A stretch of DNA of 64,000 nt from a virus (taxonomy: Duplodnaviria > Caudoviricetes): IMG/VR virus record IMGVR_UViG_3300015606_001334, positions 96,001 through 160,000 of that record; one strand, written 5' to 3'. The notes under the pieces are model-generated. The model ran no database searches. It was not told the origin of the DNA and saw nothing but the letters and a program-made list of their open reading frames with translations. Positions 18,444-63,156 of this stretch are shown here, in pieces. A program made the position numbers and the translations under genes. The first letter of the stretch is position 1; every line of letters begins with the position of its first letter.

Positions 18444-18860
18444 TTACTGGGTCGTAGCAGTCGGACAGTTCAAATTGATGGTCGGAACCGTCACTCCCAT
18501 CGGCCCGAATATTTTGTTCATACATTCTTTGTTTTCTCTTTTAAATGCTTCGAAGTCGAATGATACTTCGAGATTGACTGTAGGATCAGTCAACAGTTCC
18601 ATTTTGCTGATACGTTTCTTGGTCCAATCCATCTTTTCGACAGTATCATAATGGACCCATGCGCCCTTGTTGAGCTTCAGCCGATACTTGATGAACCACT
18701 TCTGCTTACGACTTCCATAACGAAGTTTCTTCAGAAGCTTGACGATCTCTGATTGCTTGATGACCAAAGGCGACCAAGCATACAAGGAACAAACGTCCAT
18801 ATCCTCAAAATACACGCTCATTTTAACACCATCTTCCGCCGGTTGCCTCAACATAATCAA
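18444..18860 (-). CDS. hypothetical protein
   Basis: ORF in - strand array. Confidence 0.5.
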   Translation of the reverse strand: MIMLRQPAEDGVKMSVYFEDMDVCSLYAWSPLVIKQSEIVKLLKKLRYGSRKQKWFIKYRLKLNKGAWVHYDTVEKMDWTKKRISKMELLTDPTVNLEVSFDFEAFKRENKECMNKIFGPMGVTVPTINLNCPTATTQ

Positions 18861-19288
18861 CTACCTGATAAAACCCGGTAATGAGATTTCTCAATAGTGG
18901 ATTATTTGGGTAAATCCAAAATCCCAAAGCTTGGTTCGGATTCATTTTGCCCTTCGACATCTTCATAAGAAGAGCCACATCAGATTCTATCTGGAACGGT
19001 ATGTGTTGCCATTCCAGATATTCCTTAATCAAATTTTGTTCTTTGGTCATTCGATACAAATTACCACTTAATGGTATATTGATTGTAGCTGCGATTCTTA
19101 TCGTGAGAATTGTCAGATACTTGGAAACCATTTTCACGGAGAGTTTCTACCGTTAGGTTATTAAGATTGCTACCAAAAATGTGACGACGCCCTTGATTGG
19201 CTGAGTTCACAATATCTTGGTTGATTTTCTTGAGTTCGGCAGTTGCAGCAGCTTGAGCAGCGGTAATCATCATAATCTCCTTATTAAG

Positions 19289-20407
19289 TTAGGATACTGC
19301 GAAAACTTCTTCCATCTTTTGTTCAGAAGGGGTGGACAACTTCTTACCATCTGGCAGGATCACGTTGTGGAAGGTGGTAGGATAACGGTAGAACCACTTA
19401 CCATGCTTCGAAACTGAGCTAACCACAGAAGAGGTAGCGGTGAAGCGAGAGCCATCCTTGAACTCGAAGTGAAGGTCACATTCAACCTTACCTTGACCAA
19501 GACGTACGTTGTCGAGCTTGACGCCCTTCATGTTGTTCTTCTTGTATATCACATAAGCGATCTTGCCAGTATTCTTGTAGATGAAGCCGTCAATCAGCTG
19601 GTCAGCAGCATCCTGAGCCATCTTCTTGATGAAGTCCTTCCAATCCTTGGTCAGCTTCATGTCAGCATCGACCATACGGGAGAACAGGAAGGAAAGCATT
19701 GGGTGATCGGCAAAATGATCGTAAGCTTTCATGCGCTTGATACCAGGATTTGCTTCAAGGTACGAAACGATTTGGTCGGCCATCTTGGTAAGGAACTTGT
19801 GTTCGTTACCGAAGATTTCTTCACGCTTGTCCTTAGTCAGATCGGTCAGGATCTCGATAACCTTCTTGACGTCCTTATGGCCAACGTACTTCTTCATCCA
19901 AGCATCAGATTCTTCCTTCTTGGCATCAGCAGCTTCTTTCTTGCGAGCTGCTGCAGAAACCTTGTTGTCCTTCAGCCATTGCATGAGGCCAACGATAGGA
20001 GAGAAGTCTTCGTTGAACTTGACCATTTCAGAATAACCAGCAAACTCCTTTGCTGTAGGAGAAGCCTTGGAAAGTTTCTTTCCGTAGAACTTGAGTTCTT
20101 GAACACCATGGACGTAACCAATATCCCAGTAGACTTCATCAGGAGTCTTACCAGCTTGACCATGGAAATACTTCTTTGCGACGAGTTCTTCGAACGCCTT
20201 GTCAACGAAGACGTTCATTTCATACTTGATGTCTTCGAAAGCTGTGGAGATAACTTCACCGTTACGCAGAGCATTCTCGATCTTCGGGACAATTTCCTGA
20301 AGTTGCTTCATGCGACGGTAACCAAAGGATTCAGCAAGTTTGATCAACTTTTCAGTATCAAACTTAGGAGCTTCAGCACTTTCTTTCAGCAGGTCTTGAA
20401 CTTTCAT
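19289..20407 (-). CDS. putative internal head protein
   Basis: 372 aa; MKVQDLLKES leader resembling a T4 capsid-targeting sequence with an E cleavage site. Confidence 0.6.
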   Translation of the reverse strand: MKVQDLLKESAEAPKFDTEKLIKLAESFGYRRMKQLQEIVPKIENALRNGEVISTAFEDIKYEMNVFVDKAFEELVAKKYFHGQAGKTPDEVYWDIGYVHGVQELKFYGKKLSKASPTAKEFAGYSEMVKFNEDFSPIVGLMQWLKDNKVSAAARKKEAADAKKEESDAWMKKYVGHKDVKKVIEILTDLTKDKREEIFGNEHKFLTKMADQIVSYLEANPGIKRMKAYDHFADHPMLSFLFSRMVDADMKLTKDWKDFIKKMAQDAADQLIDGFIYKNTGKIAYVIYKKNNMKGVKLDNVRLGQGKVECDLHFEFKDGSRFTATSSVVSSVSKHGKWFYRYPTTFHNVILPDGKKLSTPSEQKMEEVFAVS

Positions 20408-23891: not shown

Positions 23892-23951
23892 TCATTTTAC
23901 TCCAAACTCCTTTAGATTTATTTATAGAATGAGGAACAAAATGTTACCGGG

Positions 23952-24023
23952 TGGGTAATGTGGGGATCGAACCCACGACCCGCGGATTTAGAATCCGCTG
24001 CTCTACCATTGAGCTAATTACCC
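23952..24023 (-). tRNA. amber suppressor tRNA (anticodon CUA), Lys-like body
   Basis: cloverleaf GGGTAAT..GCGGA TTCTAAA TCCGC..GTTCGATC; no encoded CCA. Confidence 0.85.
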
Positions 24024-40652: not shown

Positions 40653-40770
40653 CGGTGGGGAGGAGTGGGTTTGAACCACTGACCTTCAGCGGAATACTGA
40701 TCACCTCAAGGCGGCCGCCAGATGAATGTTCTTCCAAACGCTGATGCTCTACCAACTGAGCTACCTCCCC
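40653..40770 (-). ncRNA. tRNA scaffold with anticodon loop replaced by a ~50-nt extension
   Basis: canonical acceptor, D and T arms; TCAGC[...]GCTGA. Confidence 0.7.
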
Positions 40771-41430: not shown

Positions 41431-41558
41431 TGGTTGAGGCGGAAGGAATCGAACCTTCTCTAGTCGGATATGAGTCGAGATAACCATCCACGAGCGGCGT
41501 ATCTCTACGCAAAAGTTGCAGGCGATGTTTTCCTGTGCTGCCAGTACACTACGCCTCA
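41431..41558 (-). ncRNA. tRNA(CAT) scaffold with GGTTATC module inserted in the 5' strand of the anticodon stem
   Basis: TGAGGCG/CGCCTCA-ACCA; ...GGATGGTTATC TCGA CTCATAT. Confidence 0.75.
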
Positions 41559-45011: not shown

Positions 45012-45152
45012 GGTCTCCCTGGATGGACTCGAACCATCGGCCCCCATAATTCCGCAGCTTAAGATGAGTTGCTACCCATCTCCGAAAATTCCATTTCGAT
45101 TTGGTCCTTTACCATGAGCGGTGGAGAGCTCTACCAACTGAGCTACAGGAAG
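45012..45152 (-). ncRNA. tRNA scaffold with ~70-nt structured anticodon replacement
   Basis: canonical D arm AGCTCAGTTGGTAGAGC and T arm GATGG TTCGAGT CCATC. Confidence 0.65.
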
Positions 45153-46098: not shown

Positions 46099-46174
46099 TG
46101 GCTCTGTAGGGTGGGCTCGAACCACCGACCGACGGATTAACAGTCCGTTGCTCTACCAACTGAGCTACTACAGA
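46099..46174 (-). tRNA. tRNA-Asn(GTT)
   Basis: ACGGA CTGTTAA TCCGT. Confidence 0.92.
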
Positions 46175-47876: not shown

Positions 47877-47962
47877 TGGAGCGCAGGGTGTGATTCGAAC
47901 ACACGTGGGATTTCTCCGAGAGGTTTGCAATCTCCCGCCTTCGACCGCTTGGCTACCTGCGC
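47877..47962 (-). tRNA. tRNA-Cys(GCA) with long variable arm
   Basis: loop TTGCAAA, U73, variable arm CGGAGAAATCCC. Confidence 0.8.
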
Positions 47963-49488: not shown

Positions 49489-49562
49489 TGGTTGCGGGCA
49501 GGGGAATCGAACCACCTTCCCAACTGGCTTATGAGACCAGCGTCAGACCTTCTGAACCCGCA
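49489..49562 (-). tRNA. tRNA(CAT) Met/Ile2, atypical D arm
   Basis: CTGGT CTCATAA GCCAG, CCA. Confidence 0.7.
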
Positions 49563-49645: not shown

Positions 49646-49735
49646 GGCGGAGGCGGTGAGATTCGAACTCACGGACCTTTTTAGGGATCGGTAGTTTTCA
49701 AGACTACTGCGTTAAACCAGCTCTGCCACGCCTCC
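49645..49735 (-). tRNA. tRNA-Ser(TGA)
   Basis: GTAGT CTTGAAA ACTAC, long variable arm, G73. Confidence 0.92.
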
Positions 49736-50068
49736 ATTTTTACGATTCCTCGACTTGTAAGTACTCAACTGTGAATCACAATTGCTACAGACAAATCTTA
49801 GATTTTCTAATCTATTGTCGTTGTTAACACCGTTGATGTGGCCAAGAATTAATGGCATAGGTTTCCCTTGCCATTCAGGACCAATTCCACAGCATGCGCA
49901 ACGATATTCGATTAACTTTCCATCTAATATTCGACTCTTTACATGATGTCTAGCGAGAGTCGAATTTTCAGAAAAAACTTCTTCATCCGTCTTTCTTATC
50001 GACCGATGATACTCTGTTAATCCTGGTTTCTTTCCTTTATTCCAAGGGACACTTCCTTTTGATGCCAT
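49712..50068 (-). CDS. HNH endonuclease
   Basis: CACCG, HINGVNNDNRLENLRFVCSNC; stop lies inside tRNA-Ser. Confidence 0.85.
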   Translation of the reverse strand: MASKGSVPWNKGKKPGLTEYHRSIRKTDEEVFSENSTLARHHVKSRILDGKLIEYRCACCGIGPEWQGKPMPLILGHINGVNNDNRLENLRFVCSNCDSQLSTYKSRNRKNGGVAELV

Positions 50069-50128
50069 AATCTGCTAAAAGTTATTTCAACAGATGTATT
50101 TATTGCACCAGTTTGTGAAACAATAGGG

Positions 50129-50192
50129 AATCAAACAAAAAGCGATGATCGACGCTTTTCCAATAAGATAACCAATCATCAACGGTTTGATT
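50129..50192 (-). ncRNA. minimal GGTTATC-module RNA (TGG loop)
   Basis: AATCAAACCG..GATTGGTTATC..GTCGATC..TTTTTGTTTGATT. Confidence 0.65.
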
Positions 50193-50283
50193 TGGCTCCG
50201 GCCTCAGGGATCGAACCTGATTGAAACCTTATGAGGGCCTCCTGGTTAACAGCCAGTTGCTCTACCAATTGAGCTACGCCGGA
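50193..50283 (-). tRNA. tRNA-Asn(GTT) whose variable arm is a second anticodon-like hairpin (CAT)
   Basis: CTGG CTGTTAA CCAG then GAGGCC CTCATAA GGTTTC. Confidence 0.75.
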
Positions 50284-50289
50284 ATTGTA

Positions 50290-50401
50290 AACTAACAAAA
50301 ATAGATATCGAGTAATGCGGCACCCAGCTTCCAAATCGGGAATCGAACCCAATCCTTCGTTTTTTCCATAAAAAGAGATAACCGATATCAAGCGGTTAGT
50401 T
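50290..50401 (-). ncRNA. GGTTATC-module permuted tRNA mimic (ATG loop, T arm)
   Basis: CTAACCG..GATATCGGTTATC; TTT TTATGGA AAA; GGG TTCGATT CCC. Confidence 0.7.
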
Positions 50402-50476
50402 GGTTGCGGGAGTTGGACTTGCACCAACCTTGGCCAGCTTATGAGACTGGTGATGAACTTTCTCCTCTATCCCGCA
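50401..50476 (-). tRNA. tRNA(CAT), atypical
   Basis: CCAGT CTCATAA GCTGG; T loop TGCAAGT; CCA. Confidence 0.65.
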
Positions 50477-51169: not shown

Positions 51170-51298
51170 CGGTGCAGTCTGAAGGAATCGAACCTCCGTC
51201 TTCGCCTTGTAATGGATAACCATTTTCAAGCGGTTCATTTTCATGAACAAATTCAGAAAACGATGTTTATCGCTGTTCTACCACTGAACTAAGACTGC
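51170..51298 (-). ncRNA. tRNA-Val(TAC) scaffold with GGTTATC module inserted near position 29/30
   Basis: removing the insert restores a CGCC/GGCG stem and ATTACAA loop. Confidence 0.75.
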
Positions 51299-51354: not shown

Positions 51355-51483
51355 GGTGGAGAGTAGAGGATTCGAACCTCTGACCACGTGCTTAACAGGC
51401 AGATAACCAATTTCGGCCGGTTTGAGCAAACAAACAAAGAGTGAAATCGACATTTACGTGCTCTACCACTGAGCTAACTCCCC
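51355..51483 (-). ncRNA. tRNA(GTT) scaffold with GGTTATC module inserted near position 29/30; G3.U70 acceptor
   Basis: removing the insert restores CGTGC CTGTTAA GCACG. Confidence 0.78.
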
Positions 51484-51564: not shown

Positions 51565-51639
51565 GGTCCGCCGCGAGGGATTTGCACCCACTACCTGAGG
51601 TTTATGAGACCTCTGCTCCTCTACTCAAGCTGCCGGCGG
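51565..51639 (-). tRNA. tRNA(CAT), atypical
   Basis: GAGGT CTCATAA ACCTC; T loop TGCAAAT. Confidence 0.55.
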
Positions 51640-52313: not shown

Positions 52314-52399
52314 TGGCGGAGACGGTGGGAATCGAACCCACTGAACCTTTCGGTCCTACACCTTAGCAGGGTGCTGCATTACCGGCCTGCCCCGTCTCC
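52314..52399 (-). tRNA. tRNA-Ser(GCT)
   Basis: GCACC CTGCTAA GGTGT, G73, CCA. Confidence 0.9.
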
Positions 52400-53055
52400 A
52401 ATTTTCTTCCTGCTTTCCAACCTTGATTTTCCCAAGATTGAAGTTCATCTTTCTTTATCTTCTTCGCTTCGGAACCATTGTTTATCCAACAAGTACCAAA
52501 TTGAGAATTCTTTTCACCTCTTACTGCTTCCTTCATCGAAGAACTAATTTTTATCTTAGTTTCCTCTTTATGGGTTTTTCCTGTCCAATCTCCAGAAGGA
52601 ACCTTCCCATACTTTTTCATCTTACCTTCTATGCCACGACGATGCCGCTCTTTTGCGGCCTCTGATCCTTTACTAAATATCTCAGCTCTTTTACTTCCAC
52701 CAGCTGAAGACCTAGCGATTTGAATCCTGTTTCGCTCTACATCATCTGAATTGATATGATCCCAACCACCTTCTCCACCAAACTTCAAGTTCATGCAGAG
52801 CGGGTGTTTCAACATCTCCTCGTTTACTACTTCAGCTTCTCTCTTCTTGAGTTCTTCTCTTGAAGGTAGAAACTCTAAAATCTCAAACTTGTGGTTTTCC
52901 AACCCATATTTCCGGATCGAATAACCTAACCTCTTTCCACTTCCTACATAACCATCTTCCAAGTTATCCGTTGAGTGCATCCCAACGTAGAACTTTTCAT
53001 TCAGAAGATTTGTGGTCCTATAAATGAAGTGGTACTTCTTTTGTTTCCTTGGCAT
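52363..53055 (-). CDS. GIY-YIG (Seg-like) homing endonuclease
   Basis: FIYRTTN..NEKFYVGMHST..DGYVGSG; NUMOD3-like GKTHKEETK; paralog of 36459..37124. Confidence 0.9.
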   Translation of the reverse strand: MPRKQKKYHFIYRTTNLLNEKFYVGMHSTDNLEDGYVGSGKRLGYSIRKYGLENHKFEILEFLPSREELKKREAEVVNEEMLKHPLCMNLKFGGEGGWDHINSDDVERNRIQIARSSAGGSKRAEIFSKGSEAAKERHRRGIEGKMKKYGKVPSGDWTGKTHKEETKIKISSSMKEAVRGEKNSQFGTCWINNGSEAKKIKKDELQSWENQGWKAGRKLETGQAGNAAPC

Positions 53056-60007: not shown

Positions 60008-60029
60008 TTTATTGTTCTTATTATGGAAG

Positions 60030-60402
60030 TGAGGGTGGGGAAATGTTTCTGTTGCCAAGTACAACTTCCCCAAAAACTCCGACAGCTTTACCTATTTAAA
60101 GGATCAAGCAGCCACGCGGTAACTTTCGTCGTTTGCGTTTAACTTTTTTCTTCCACTAACGCAGGTTGCTCTCGAGTCGTTCCAATCTTGTTACTCATGC
60201 CATGTCGAGACCTGTCGACCCCATTAAAAAGAAACCTAGTATGACGATCACGTTCTCTTACTCTTTCGTCATCCTGCCTTGCCTTCTCATAGGTAAGATC
60301 GAAGAACGATCCATCTTACCTCGGGCGACCTCCTTGCGAGAGGACTTGGTTTCTTTTTGGTGGAGTCGAGGGGAATCGAACCCCTTTCCACAACACTTTC
60401 CC
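60030..60402 (-). ncRNA. ssrA: circularly permuted two-piece tmRNA; tag ANDESYRVAA*
   Basis: acceptor piece ..GGGGTTCGATTCCCCTCGACTCCACCA (ends 60358) lies upstream of the coding piece starting GGGGTCG (60222); G3.U70; tag ORF 60104..60136. Confidence 0.88.
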
Positions 60403-60592
60403 AATCAAAGTCTCAGGTATTTCTACCCATACGACTATAAAAACTCTCGGTCATTCTTTCGATCGTCTTCCCATTTATCCCAGTTGTAATGAAAGATGGA
60501 ATAAATCCAACCACCAACACAACCAATGATTGTTACAACAACGAGAAGTTTTTCTACTTGATCAACCATGAAAAGAATTATATCACTATTTA

Positions 60593-62205: not shown

Positions 62206-63156
62206 TCAATTATTTACATCTTTTGCGAGGCGCACTTGCGCGGTTTCATTACACAACGTCACCATCATACCTGAGACTTCGAACTTATCATCACGTTTGG
62301 GTCCATTGATCCGCTTTTGGACTTCCTCGATAGCATTGCGAGTCAAGTACTTTCCAAACTTCACGGAGAAATGATGGTAAAGAAAGTTCCGTTGACGATA
62401 GTCGCTTAGCTTTCTTAGGTTCACCCGATCAATTCCGGTTTCACCCGATCCGCATGATTGATTGTCTATATGGTAGAGGTCCTCAATGAGAGCCGAACAC
62501 TCCGACATATTTTGCATGGCTCGCTCAAGTGATGCATAGAACTTCCAGCTTGTGAAATGTTCCTTGAGCAATGGAATCACTTTGTTCCGAATAAAGCCCC
62601 GTGACAGTTCGGTACTATCGTTGGTAGAATCGTGCCCGTATAGTATACTGAGCGCCTCCACTTGCTGCAGGATTTCTTCTTTAGATAGATGGATAAGAGG
62701 ACGAATAAGACGGGAGTTTTTCGGATTCGAAGAAATCCCAGACAGACCTTTGACAGAACTTCCACGACATAGGCGGAAGAAAAACGTTTCGATTGAATCA
62801 TCAAGATGATGACCAGTCAGGAGAGTCTCGTTGAGCAAAAGATTGCTGTACAAAGCATCGTATCTACCCGCTCTTTCGGCAGCTTCGATTCCCTGTGACT
62901 TAACCATTCTTTCGTCAACCGTTGCCGTTAACACGGTGATTTCAAGCCCGTAGTATTTCGCCCACTCAACACAAAAATCCCGAATCTTTTCAGCGCCATT
63001 CGACGCCTTGGAATCAGGATGCATGACATGGACTAATCGAAAGTCGTATCCACCTTGCTTAAGTAGGAAAGCAAGAAGGGCAGAATCTGCCCCTCCGGAA
63101 AATGCTACGACGTAACGAAGACCAATGTGTTTTGGTAGGTTAATCATCTTTGTCAA
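62206..63156 (-). CDS. tilS: tRNA(Ile)-lysidine synthetase
   Basis: PP-loop AFSGGADS, E..R..RY, TGHHLDDSIET, RG, IRPL, D.TN, R..IRNKVIP. Confidence 0.9.
   Translation of the reverse strand: MTKMINLPKHIGLRYVVAFSGGADSALLAFLLKQGGYDFRLVHVMHPDSKASNGAEKIRDFCVEWAKYYGLEITVLTATVDERMVKSQGIEAAERAGRYDALYSNLLLNETLLTGHHLDDSIETFFFRLCRGSSVKGLSGISSNPKNSRLIRPLIHLSKEEILQQVEALSILYGHDSTNDSTELSRGFIRNKVIPLLKEHFTSWKFYASLERAMQNMSECSALIEDLYHIDNQSCGSGETGIDRVNLRKLSDYRQRNFLYHHFSVKFGKYLTRNAIEEVQKRINGPKRDDKFEVSGMMVTLCNETAQVRLAKDVNN

Follow-up and report, generated by a model that had tools for sequence, protein, structure and literature searches.

Introduction

Long-arm tRNA-Asn genes are already annotated in cultured phages. 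Phage phiKZ (AF399011, 269557-269645) encodes a tRNA-Asn of 87 nt with a long variable arm, and the T5-like Proteus phage Stubb (MH830339) encodes one of 85 nt that is matched over its full length by several hundred T5-like and T4-like records; the tRNA-Asn of T5 is 78 nt long and has a short variable loop. Full-text literature searches returned no description of a long-arm tRNA-Asn or of a tRNA with a second anticodon-like arm. We scanned IMG/VR with a pattern in which only the Asn anticodon loop (with the pairs that close it) and the T loop were fixed and a long spacer was required, and found matches in at least 119 contigs; 115 of the matches listed are tRNA-Asn(gtt) genes of 80-95 nt as called by ARAGORN, and most arms among the listed matches have 3-6-bp stems and GNRA-type tetraloops. 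The initial annotation of the locus described here took short variable loops to be the norm for Asn tRNAs; this is true of cells, whereas in phages long-arm tRNA-Asn is common.

Long variable arms also occur on other isotypes in the arrays, with shares of 19% for Cys, 20% for Thr(UGU), 12% each for Met and Ile, 10% for His and 9% for Lys. Lys, Thr(UGU), His, Pro and Met tRNAs of 84-92 nt are frequent in phage arrays and many have class-II-like 3-bp D stems; examples are found in Rhodobacter phage RcXuper (L131, 11855-11942) and in arrays L123, L207, L277 and L302.

Phage tRNAs are weapons against tRNA-cutting immunity, for which the variable arm is one documented cleavage site. PARIS AriB cuts the Escherichia coli tRNAs for Lys (anticodon UUU), Thr (UGU) and Asn (GUU) at 40|41, and infection in the face of PARIS AriB is rescued by T5 tRNA variants, including that for Asn (10.1101/2025.02.04.636281). 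In tRNA-Tyr it is the variable arm that is cut by retron-Eco7 and Septu, and the T5 tRNA-Tyr resists by means of its distinctive variable loop (PMC13096335). Here we describe a family of phage tRNA-Asn genes with a heptaloop hairpin module in the variable region, which is new within the known long-arm class and accounts for 3 of the 115 long-arm Asn genes among the matches listed.

Results

A tRNA-Asn gene with a structured variable arm

The window analyzed here is a 64,000-nt stretch comprising bases 96001-160000 of an IMG/VR phage record (G000) of 359,550 bp, rated complete by CheckV; coordinates are those of the window except where a genome or contig is named. It contains 45 tRNA genes predicted by ARAGORN, together with a permuted tmRNA (60013-60450, minus strand; Rfam RF04321, 94.6 bits; tag ANDESYRVAA). 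The gene of interest, a tRNA-Asn(GUU) at 50193-50283 on the minus strand, is 91 nt long with an encoded CCA, and is recognized by ARAGORN, by Rfam RF00005 and by folding. Its Rfam score of 47.0 bits, with 17 inserted bases in the variable region, exceeds the gathering score of 29, and ARAGORN fits the four arms of a cloverleaf with a 7-bp acceptor stem containing one G.G mismatch, a 7/5 branch, and a D arm of class-I type (4-bp stem, 8-nt loop). The sequence features of a tRNA-Asn are all present: the GUU anticodon, discriminator G73 and the bacterial-type U1:A72 pair. The anticodon GUU and G73 belong to the identity set of AsnRS.

The minimum-free-energy fold (-32.4 kcal/mol, z = -1.64) has five arms, namely acceptor, D, anticodon, variable and T. 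The anticodon arm (ACUGG-CUGUUAA-CCAGG, 50241-50257, minus strand; anticodon at 50248-50250) appears in this fold as ACUGG-CUGUUAA-CCAG, with A27 and G43 left unpaired, and the T arm (UCAGG-UUCGAUC-CCUGA, 50204-50220, minus strand) is supported by the fold, by ARAGORN and by pair counts in the family. Between them lies a 20-nt variable region that forms a hairpin (50223-50241, minus strand) both in the minimum-free-energy fold and in the RNAalifold consensus, with GAGGCC paired to GGUUUC around the loop CUCAUAA (50229-50235, minus strand), followed by a linker of 5-6 nt to the T stem. From the fold and the family alignment (below), this is the G000 version of a module AGGCC-CUNNNAA-GGUAU, whose heptaloop has the anticodon-loop-like frame C-U-N-N-N-A-A with CAU as the variable part. 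The observation of the initial annotation, an Asn body and anticodon followed by GAGGCC CTCATAA GGTTTC, is thus confirmed in full.

The phage also encodes a second, canonical tRNA-Asn(GUU) of 76 nt (46099-46174, minus strand; ARAGORN), which outscores the long-arm copy in Rfam (71.5 versus 47 bits). The long-arm copy has two non-standard pairs, G7.G66 and A27.G43, both of which are rare in the family, yet the 91-nt gene recurs letter for letter on metagenome contigs L238 and L265. Long arms are also present on three class-I tRNAs of G000, those for Cys(GCA), Gln(UUG) and Glu(UUC), each arm being a short stem closed by a small tri- or tetraloop (GCAA in Gln); they lie on the minus strand at 47877-47962 of the window and at genome positions 72389-72475 and 72834-72917.

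The arm loop is identical to the anticodon loops of CAT tRNAs nearby, as had been noted from the letters alone: CTCATAA is the loop in three CAT tRNA-like genes on the same strand, no more than 1.5 kb away. Only the nearest of these, at 50404-50476 (loop at 50439-50445), passes the Rfam threshold, scoring 39.7 bits with permissive filters, and the other two loops (49529-49535 and 51602-51608) sit in matches below the gathering score. All three CAT tRNA-like genes (50404-50476, 49492-49562 and 51575-51631, minus strand) are missed by ARAGORN, and the first has an odd T loop, UGCAAGU. The heptamer CTCATAA on its own is present 11 times in the window, the chance frequency (10.35 expected); the hairpin is nonetheless beyond chance because it recurs in homologous tRNAs elsewhere.

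The surrounding region is rich in unusual elements. Modules with AACCG...GGTTATC...TTTTTGTTNGATT adjoin the Asn gene on its 3' side (50120-50192) and its 5' side (50284-50403), both on the minus strand. Five tRNA bodies on the minus strand carry 40-66-nt inserts in the anticodon arm (40654-40770, 41431-41558, 45012-45152, 51171-51298 and 51355-51483); four of the five are found by Rfam, the intron mode of ARAGORN detects such interrupted bodies as well, and several of the inserts end in GGTTATC. A tRNA with a CUA anticodon (23950-24023, minus strand), of amber suppressor type and labeled 'Pyl' by ARAGORN, has counterparts with the same anticodon in the related arrays L123, L241 and L277. An HNH-type open reading frame (49715-50068, minus strand) lies just downstream of the Asn gene, and another resembling GIY-YIG or group-I-intron endonucleases is nearby (52363-53055, minus strand). 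We considered whether the arm might confer immunity to a homing endonuclease and rejected this explanation: HNH homologs are present in six other arrays, but their distance to the Asn gene varies (0.8-6 kb) and they do not regularly adjoin it.

Distribution and conservation of the heptaloop module

The search patterns were relaxed stepwise as a guard against ascertainment bias. When both loops were required, one other viral contig was found (L004); a pattern with a free triplet gave 10 loci. The loop-free pattern GGCC-N7-GGT recovered the same 9 loci, all of them tRNA-Asn with CUYAYAA loops, and GCC-N7-GG added to these only one variant loop (CTTAACT) and two matches due to chance. A metagenome scan added at least 51 real Asn genes, at least 38 of them distinct, after 69 of the 120 listed matches had been discarded as unrelated (mostly 3' halves of tRNA-Phe). 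Across 185,579 cellular species genomes (596 Gb) the module occurs once, on a 290-kb contig (G011:C51) in a Verrucomicrobiia MAG bin; the 40 kb of this contig that were examined contain at least 17 tRNA genes, the contig also encodes a short TilS, and it looks like a jumbo phage. A blastn search of cultured phages with the window tRNA gave no match beyond its 5' half.

Most family members lie inside dense tRNA arrays, and in at least six of these, including that of G000, a canonical 72-76-nt Asn gene accompanies the long-arm one. Some family contigs have proteins in common with G000. The module is found in Asn tRNAs only, and a search of the same arrays found none on other isotypes. The long-arm Asn gene of another viral record, G001, stands beside a 69-nt initiator-like CAT tRNA (L004:6660-6728, minus strand) in which C1xA72 is mismatched, three G:C pairs adjoin the loop, and that loop reads CUCAUGA, with G37.

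We aligned 40 distinct genes (alignment A1). The mean identity of stem columns is only 56%, and the acceptor, D, anticodon and T helices are paired in 98.5-99.4% of cases, and in 17 of their 21 pairs both partners have changed; the anticodon helix is 99% paired and has such two-sided changes in all five of its pairs. Shuffled alignments give a covariation score of 0.160, compared with 0.709 for the real one, and none of 500 shuffles scored as high. The anticodon loop CUGUUAA is invariant (40/40), U1:A72 is present in 37 of the 40 and G73 is kept. Given this strong covariation of the canonical arms, the genes look like working tRNAs that have long been diverging.

The variable arm behaves differently. 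Its two loop-proximal C:G pairs were fixed by the search pattern; at the third pair 36 of the 40 genes have G:U or G:C, the fourth is usually a G.A mismatch, and the fifth is A:U in 27. The RNAalifold consensus is accordingly a 3-bp stem with a 7-nt loop, and the 6-bp stem of G000 is the longest in the family. Beyond the exchange of G:U for G:C there is no compensatory change in this stem, whose conservation is partly imposed by the search patterns, although positions that the patterns left free are still conserved, with A44 in 39 of 40 and the middle A of the loop in 38 of 40. As judged from the alignment, the arm is a sequence-conserved module and not a freely covarying helix. The description of the hairpin as a second anticodon arm consequently does not extend to the family, in which only three base pairs of the stem are conserved rather than the five of an anticodon stem.

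The central triplet and the CAU anticodon

The match of the arm loop to CAU anticodon loops raises the possibility that the arm mimics the anticodon stem-loop of tRNA-Met, tRNA-fMet or tRNA-Ile2, and so acts as a decoy or substrate for a short TilS, MetRS, IleRS or an fMet-specific VapC nuclease. The resemblance is close, in that the loop has the exact frame C32-U33-NNN-A37-A38 and is the same as the loops of the neighboring CAT tRNAs. Moreover, G000 encodes a TilS-like protein of 316 residues (62206-63156, minus strand; PF01171, 1.7e-36; TIGR02432, 139.4 bits against a cut-off of 93.6), 12 kb upstream of the Asn gene and on the same strand. It is a short form, whose match to the E. coli-type TIGR02432 profile of 439 positions covers no more than positions 19-287, and it lacks the C-terminal third of the E. 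coli-type enzyme. Short TilS enzymes depend on the anticodon arm. A TilS-like gene is present 7-12 kb upstream on the same strand in both viral records with a CAU loop (G000 and G001; in the latter a similarly short gene at 18804-19370), and was detected in none of the nine others, all of which are 5-49% fragments.

The triplet itself argues against this interpretation. Conservation of the second loop in related phages had been proposed at the outset as a check, with an unconserved loop as the refutation, and the outcome is divided: the frame CU...AA is kept, but CAU is present in only 12 of the 40 homologs, the others having eight different triplets (UAU in 9, UAC in 5, CAC in 5, UAG in 4, AAU in 2, and CGU, UGU and CAA in one each). 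The triplet has a mean pairwise identity of 0.60, which does not exceed the value for stem positions, and two of the four gene pairs that differ at two or fewer other positions differ in the triplet (CAU/CGU and CAU/CAC). Because it switches between genes that are otherwise near-identical, only one or two positions apart, the triplet is the fastest-changing part of an otherwise rigid module. On the homologs compared, CAU is one allele and not a conserved Met/Ile2 signal. When U occupies the first position of the triplet, conversion to lysidine is impossible, and tRNA geometry places a variable-region arm out of reach of the decoding center.

Nor does TilS track the CAU allele. The association breaks down in G011:C51, the first independent genome that is near-complete: it combines a UAU-loop tRNA with a short TilS (62531-63100) that is 33% identical to the G000 enzyme. 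A tblastn search with the G000 TilS against 393 kb of family loci gave no match. A different correspondence is seen for tRNA-Ile(UAU), genes for which occur only in arrays whose Asn arm has the UAU loop, in three lineages, two of which are homologous arrays (L123:2581-2660, L125:2729-2808 and L126:6910-6981); in these the arm loop CUUAUAA is the same as the Ile anticodon loop. This may be chance, or it may hint weakly that the arm follows the AUA decoder, and against the latter three further UAU-loop arrays (L197, L200 and L222) are without a tRNA-Ile(UAU). More generally, the arm triplet coincides with one of the anticodons of its own array in 9 cases, when 8.3 are expected (permutation p = 0.45). 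Since TilS does not follow the allele and the triplet matches local anticodons no more often than permutation predicts, we reject the specific Met/Ile2-CAU interpretation; with a family stem of 3 bp and a G.A mismatch, mimicry of a CAU tRNA more generally seems unlikely to us. What stands of the dual decoy or substrate proposed in the initial annotation is an arm that is real, selected and anticodon-loop-like, for which a role as a contact surface is reasonable, but a specific decoy for TilS, MetRS or VapC is unsupported.

Discussion

The locus probably encodes a functional elongator tRNA-Asn(GUU) of a jumbo phage, belonging to an Asn-specific and almost phage-only sub-family with a conserved hairpin module, whose arm may alter recognition by tRNA-binding proteins. 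Following established identity rules, the tRNA would be transcribed within the array, processed, charged by the host Asn route and used to read AAY codons. We found no phage-encoded synthetase of the Asp/Asn/Lys type (class IIb) in G000, and the phage must therefore use that of the host; a phage AsnRS or AspRS as the partner of the arm is likewise dismissed, both being absent from G000. The 20-nt variable region should be tolerated in translation, falling within the size range that the ribosome accepts in Leu, Ser and Tyr tRNAs. The arm is predicted to project beside the 3' strand of the anticodon stem, the place of the AriB cut at 40|41, so that the tRNA would have the outline of a class-II molecule tipped by a U-turn-type loop. 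Against this interpretation, the G000 copy has the two non-standard pairs and a lower Rfam score than the canonical Asn gene of the same phage.

The most likely benefit of the arm would be a changed view of the tRNA by tRNA-binding proteins. By analogy with the T5 tRNAs, the leading candidate is that the arm makes the tRNA a poor substrate for host defense nucleases that cut the anticodon stem or the variable region, and escape from nuclease docking is a reasonable proposal for long-arm phage Asn tRNAs in general. We also asked whether PARIS targets are enriched among the long-arm isotypes, and set this aside as unspecific, as Cys, Met, Ile and His tRNAs are long-armed too. As a second candidate, the tip of the arm could be a handle for some partner. 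A pure shape role would not need a heptaloop conserved in sequence, given that GNRA-type tetraloops suffice in most other long-arm phage Asn tRNAs, and the tip therefore probably has a specific partner.

That partner could in principle be one that reads anticodon loops. The arm would then be a second anticodon-type stem-loop serving as bait or handle, with an exposed and fast-changing triplet (mostly Y-A-Y) that co-evolves with the partner, so that Asn decoding and partner titration or recruitment are combined in one molecule. Candidate partners would be a defense anticodon nuclease, a class Ia synthetase, TilS or another modification enzyme, or the GUR anticodon of tRNA-His or tRNA-Tyr through loop-loop contacts. 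We consider this elaboration unlikely.

Quite improbable, in our judgment, is that the RNA has only the shape of a tRNA and serves an off-ribosome protein-binding or regulatory role, like the tRNA-like and Y-RNA-like modules around it. In its favor, aberrant tRNA-like genes and GGTTATC-handle modules crowd the region, one such module starting directly 3' of the Asn tRNA, the phage already has a canonical Asn tRNA, and the G000 copy has its two mismatched pairs. However, the invariant CUGUUAA, the retained G73 and the near-universal U1:A72 amount to decoder-type conservation, and in other contigs the module family occurs without GGTTATC handles.

Very unlikely is a switch of identity, in which the long arm and G73 would make the tRNA a substrate of SerRS and AAY codons would be partly read as Ser, following the logic of allo- and nev-tRNAs. 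A long arm together with G73 is the core Ser identity set (PMC5389517), and nev-tRNAs set a precedent for class-II bodies with foreign anticodons (PMC3333845). The D arm is nevertheless that of a class-I tRNA, with its 4-bp stem and 8-nt loop, and all Asn identity elements are retained. SerRS recognizes the shape of the arm and not its sequence, and the arm here has a short, 3-bp stem that is conserved in sequence. Proteome-wide misreading of Asn as Ser in hundreds of phages also seems costly.

The possibility that the extra 15 nt are a tolerated scar in a decaying gene, such as a partial duplication of the anticodon arm, would fit an insert of near anticodon-arm size with the same loop frame, and large variable-region inserts can be tolerated, in that a Spinach-tRNA fusion is reported to be active in translation (PMC5397188), but the conservation data largely refute it and we give it very little credence: 40 distinct genes keep the module while their stems share only 56% identity, A44 and the central A of the loop hardly vary without having been imposed, and almost no other loop appeared in the loop-free scans.

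Returning to a working tRNA-Asn whose arm changes its contacts with proteins, the addition of an arm to tRNA-Asn, a known PARIS target, in hundreds of phages points to a putative structural, rather than point-mutational, form of escape or recognition. Conservation of an anticodon-loop-like module around a rapidly varying triplet is what a specific molecular contact would be expected to leave. At 87-92 nt, the tRNA is a compact and easily synthesized object for assays in which the arm is deleted or the triplet swapped. Even if the arm proves inert, the sub-family corrects the textbook rule that class II tRNAs in bacterial systems are confined to Leu, Ser and Tyr (plus Sec).

Comparison with known tRNAs

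The anticodon arms of tRNA-Met, tRNA-fMet and tRNA-Ile2, the last a TilS substrate, share with the G000 arm the identical loop CUCAUAA, and a phage TilS is encoded nearby; they have a 5-bp stem, whereas the variable arm of the family has no 5-bp helix and does not conserve CAU. Bacterial class II tRNAs (Leu, Ser and Tyr) likewise fold the stretch between the anticodon and T arms, a variable region exceeding 10 nt, into a stem-loop. Their loops are 3-5 nt long, in contrast to the 7-nt loop of G000, which stands on a tRNA of Asn isotype, with a D arm that lacks class-II architecture and a 3' linker of 5-6 nt. The nev- and allo-tRNAs (PMC3333845, PMC5389517) are likewise long-arm tRNAs with anticodons outside Leu, Ser and Tyr, but these either miscode while retaining the identity of Leu or Ser, or have 8/4 or 9/3 branches, whereas the G000 tRNA has a 7/5 branch and the full Asn identity set. 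The nuclease-resistant T5 tRNAs (10.1101/2025.02.04.636281, PMC13096335, PMC11555353) are similarly altered near the anticodon stem or variable region. Resistance in T5 comes from point changes or a distinctive loop, and the G000 family has an added anticodon-like arm.

The closest relatives are the long-arm Asn tRNAs of the phiKZ and Stubb type, with which the G000 gene shares the Asn anticodon, G73, a stem-loop in the variable region, and confinement to phages, being phage-encoded and nearly absent from cells; they too often lie beside a CAT tRNA. The phiKZ tRNA-Asn differs in having a class-II-like 3-bp D stem where the G000 tRNA has a class-I D arm. In the copies of this type that were examined, stems of 3-5 bp carry short GNRA-type tetraloops of variable sequence, whereas the heptaloop family has a conserved 7-nt CUNNNAA loop on a conserved stem and is the clearest case of an added arm that goes beyond a spacer hairpin.
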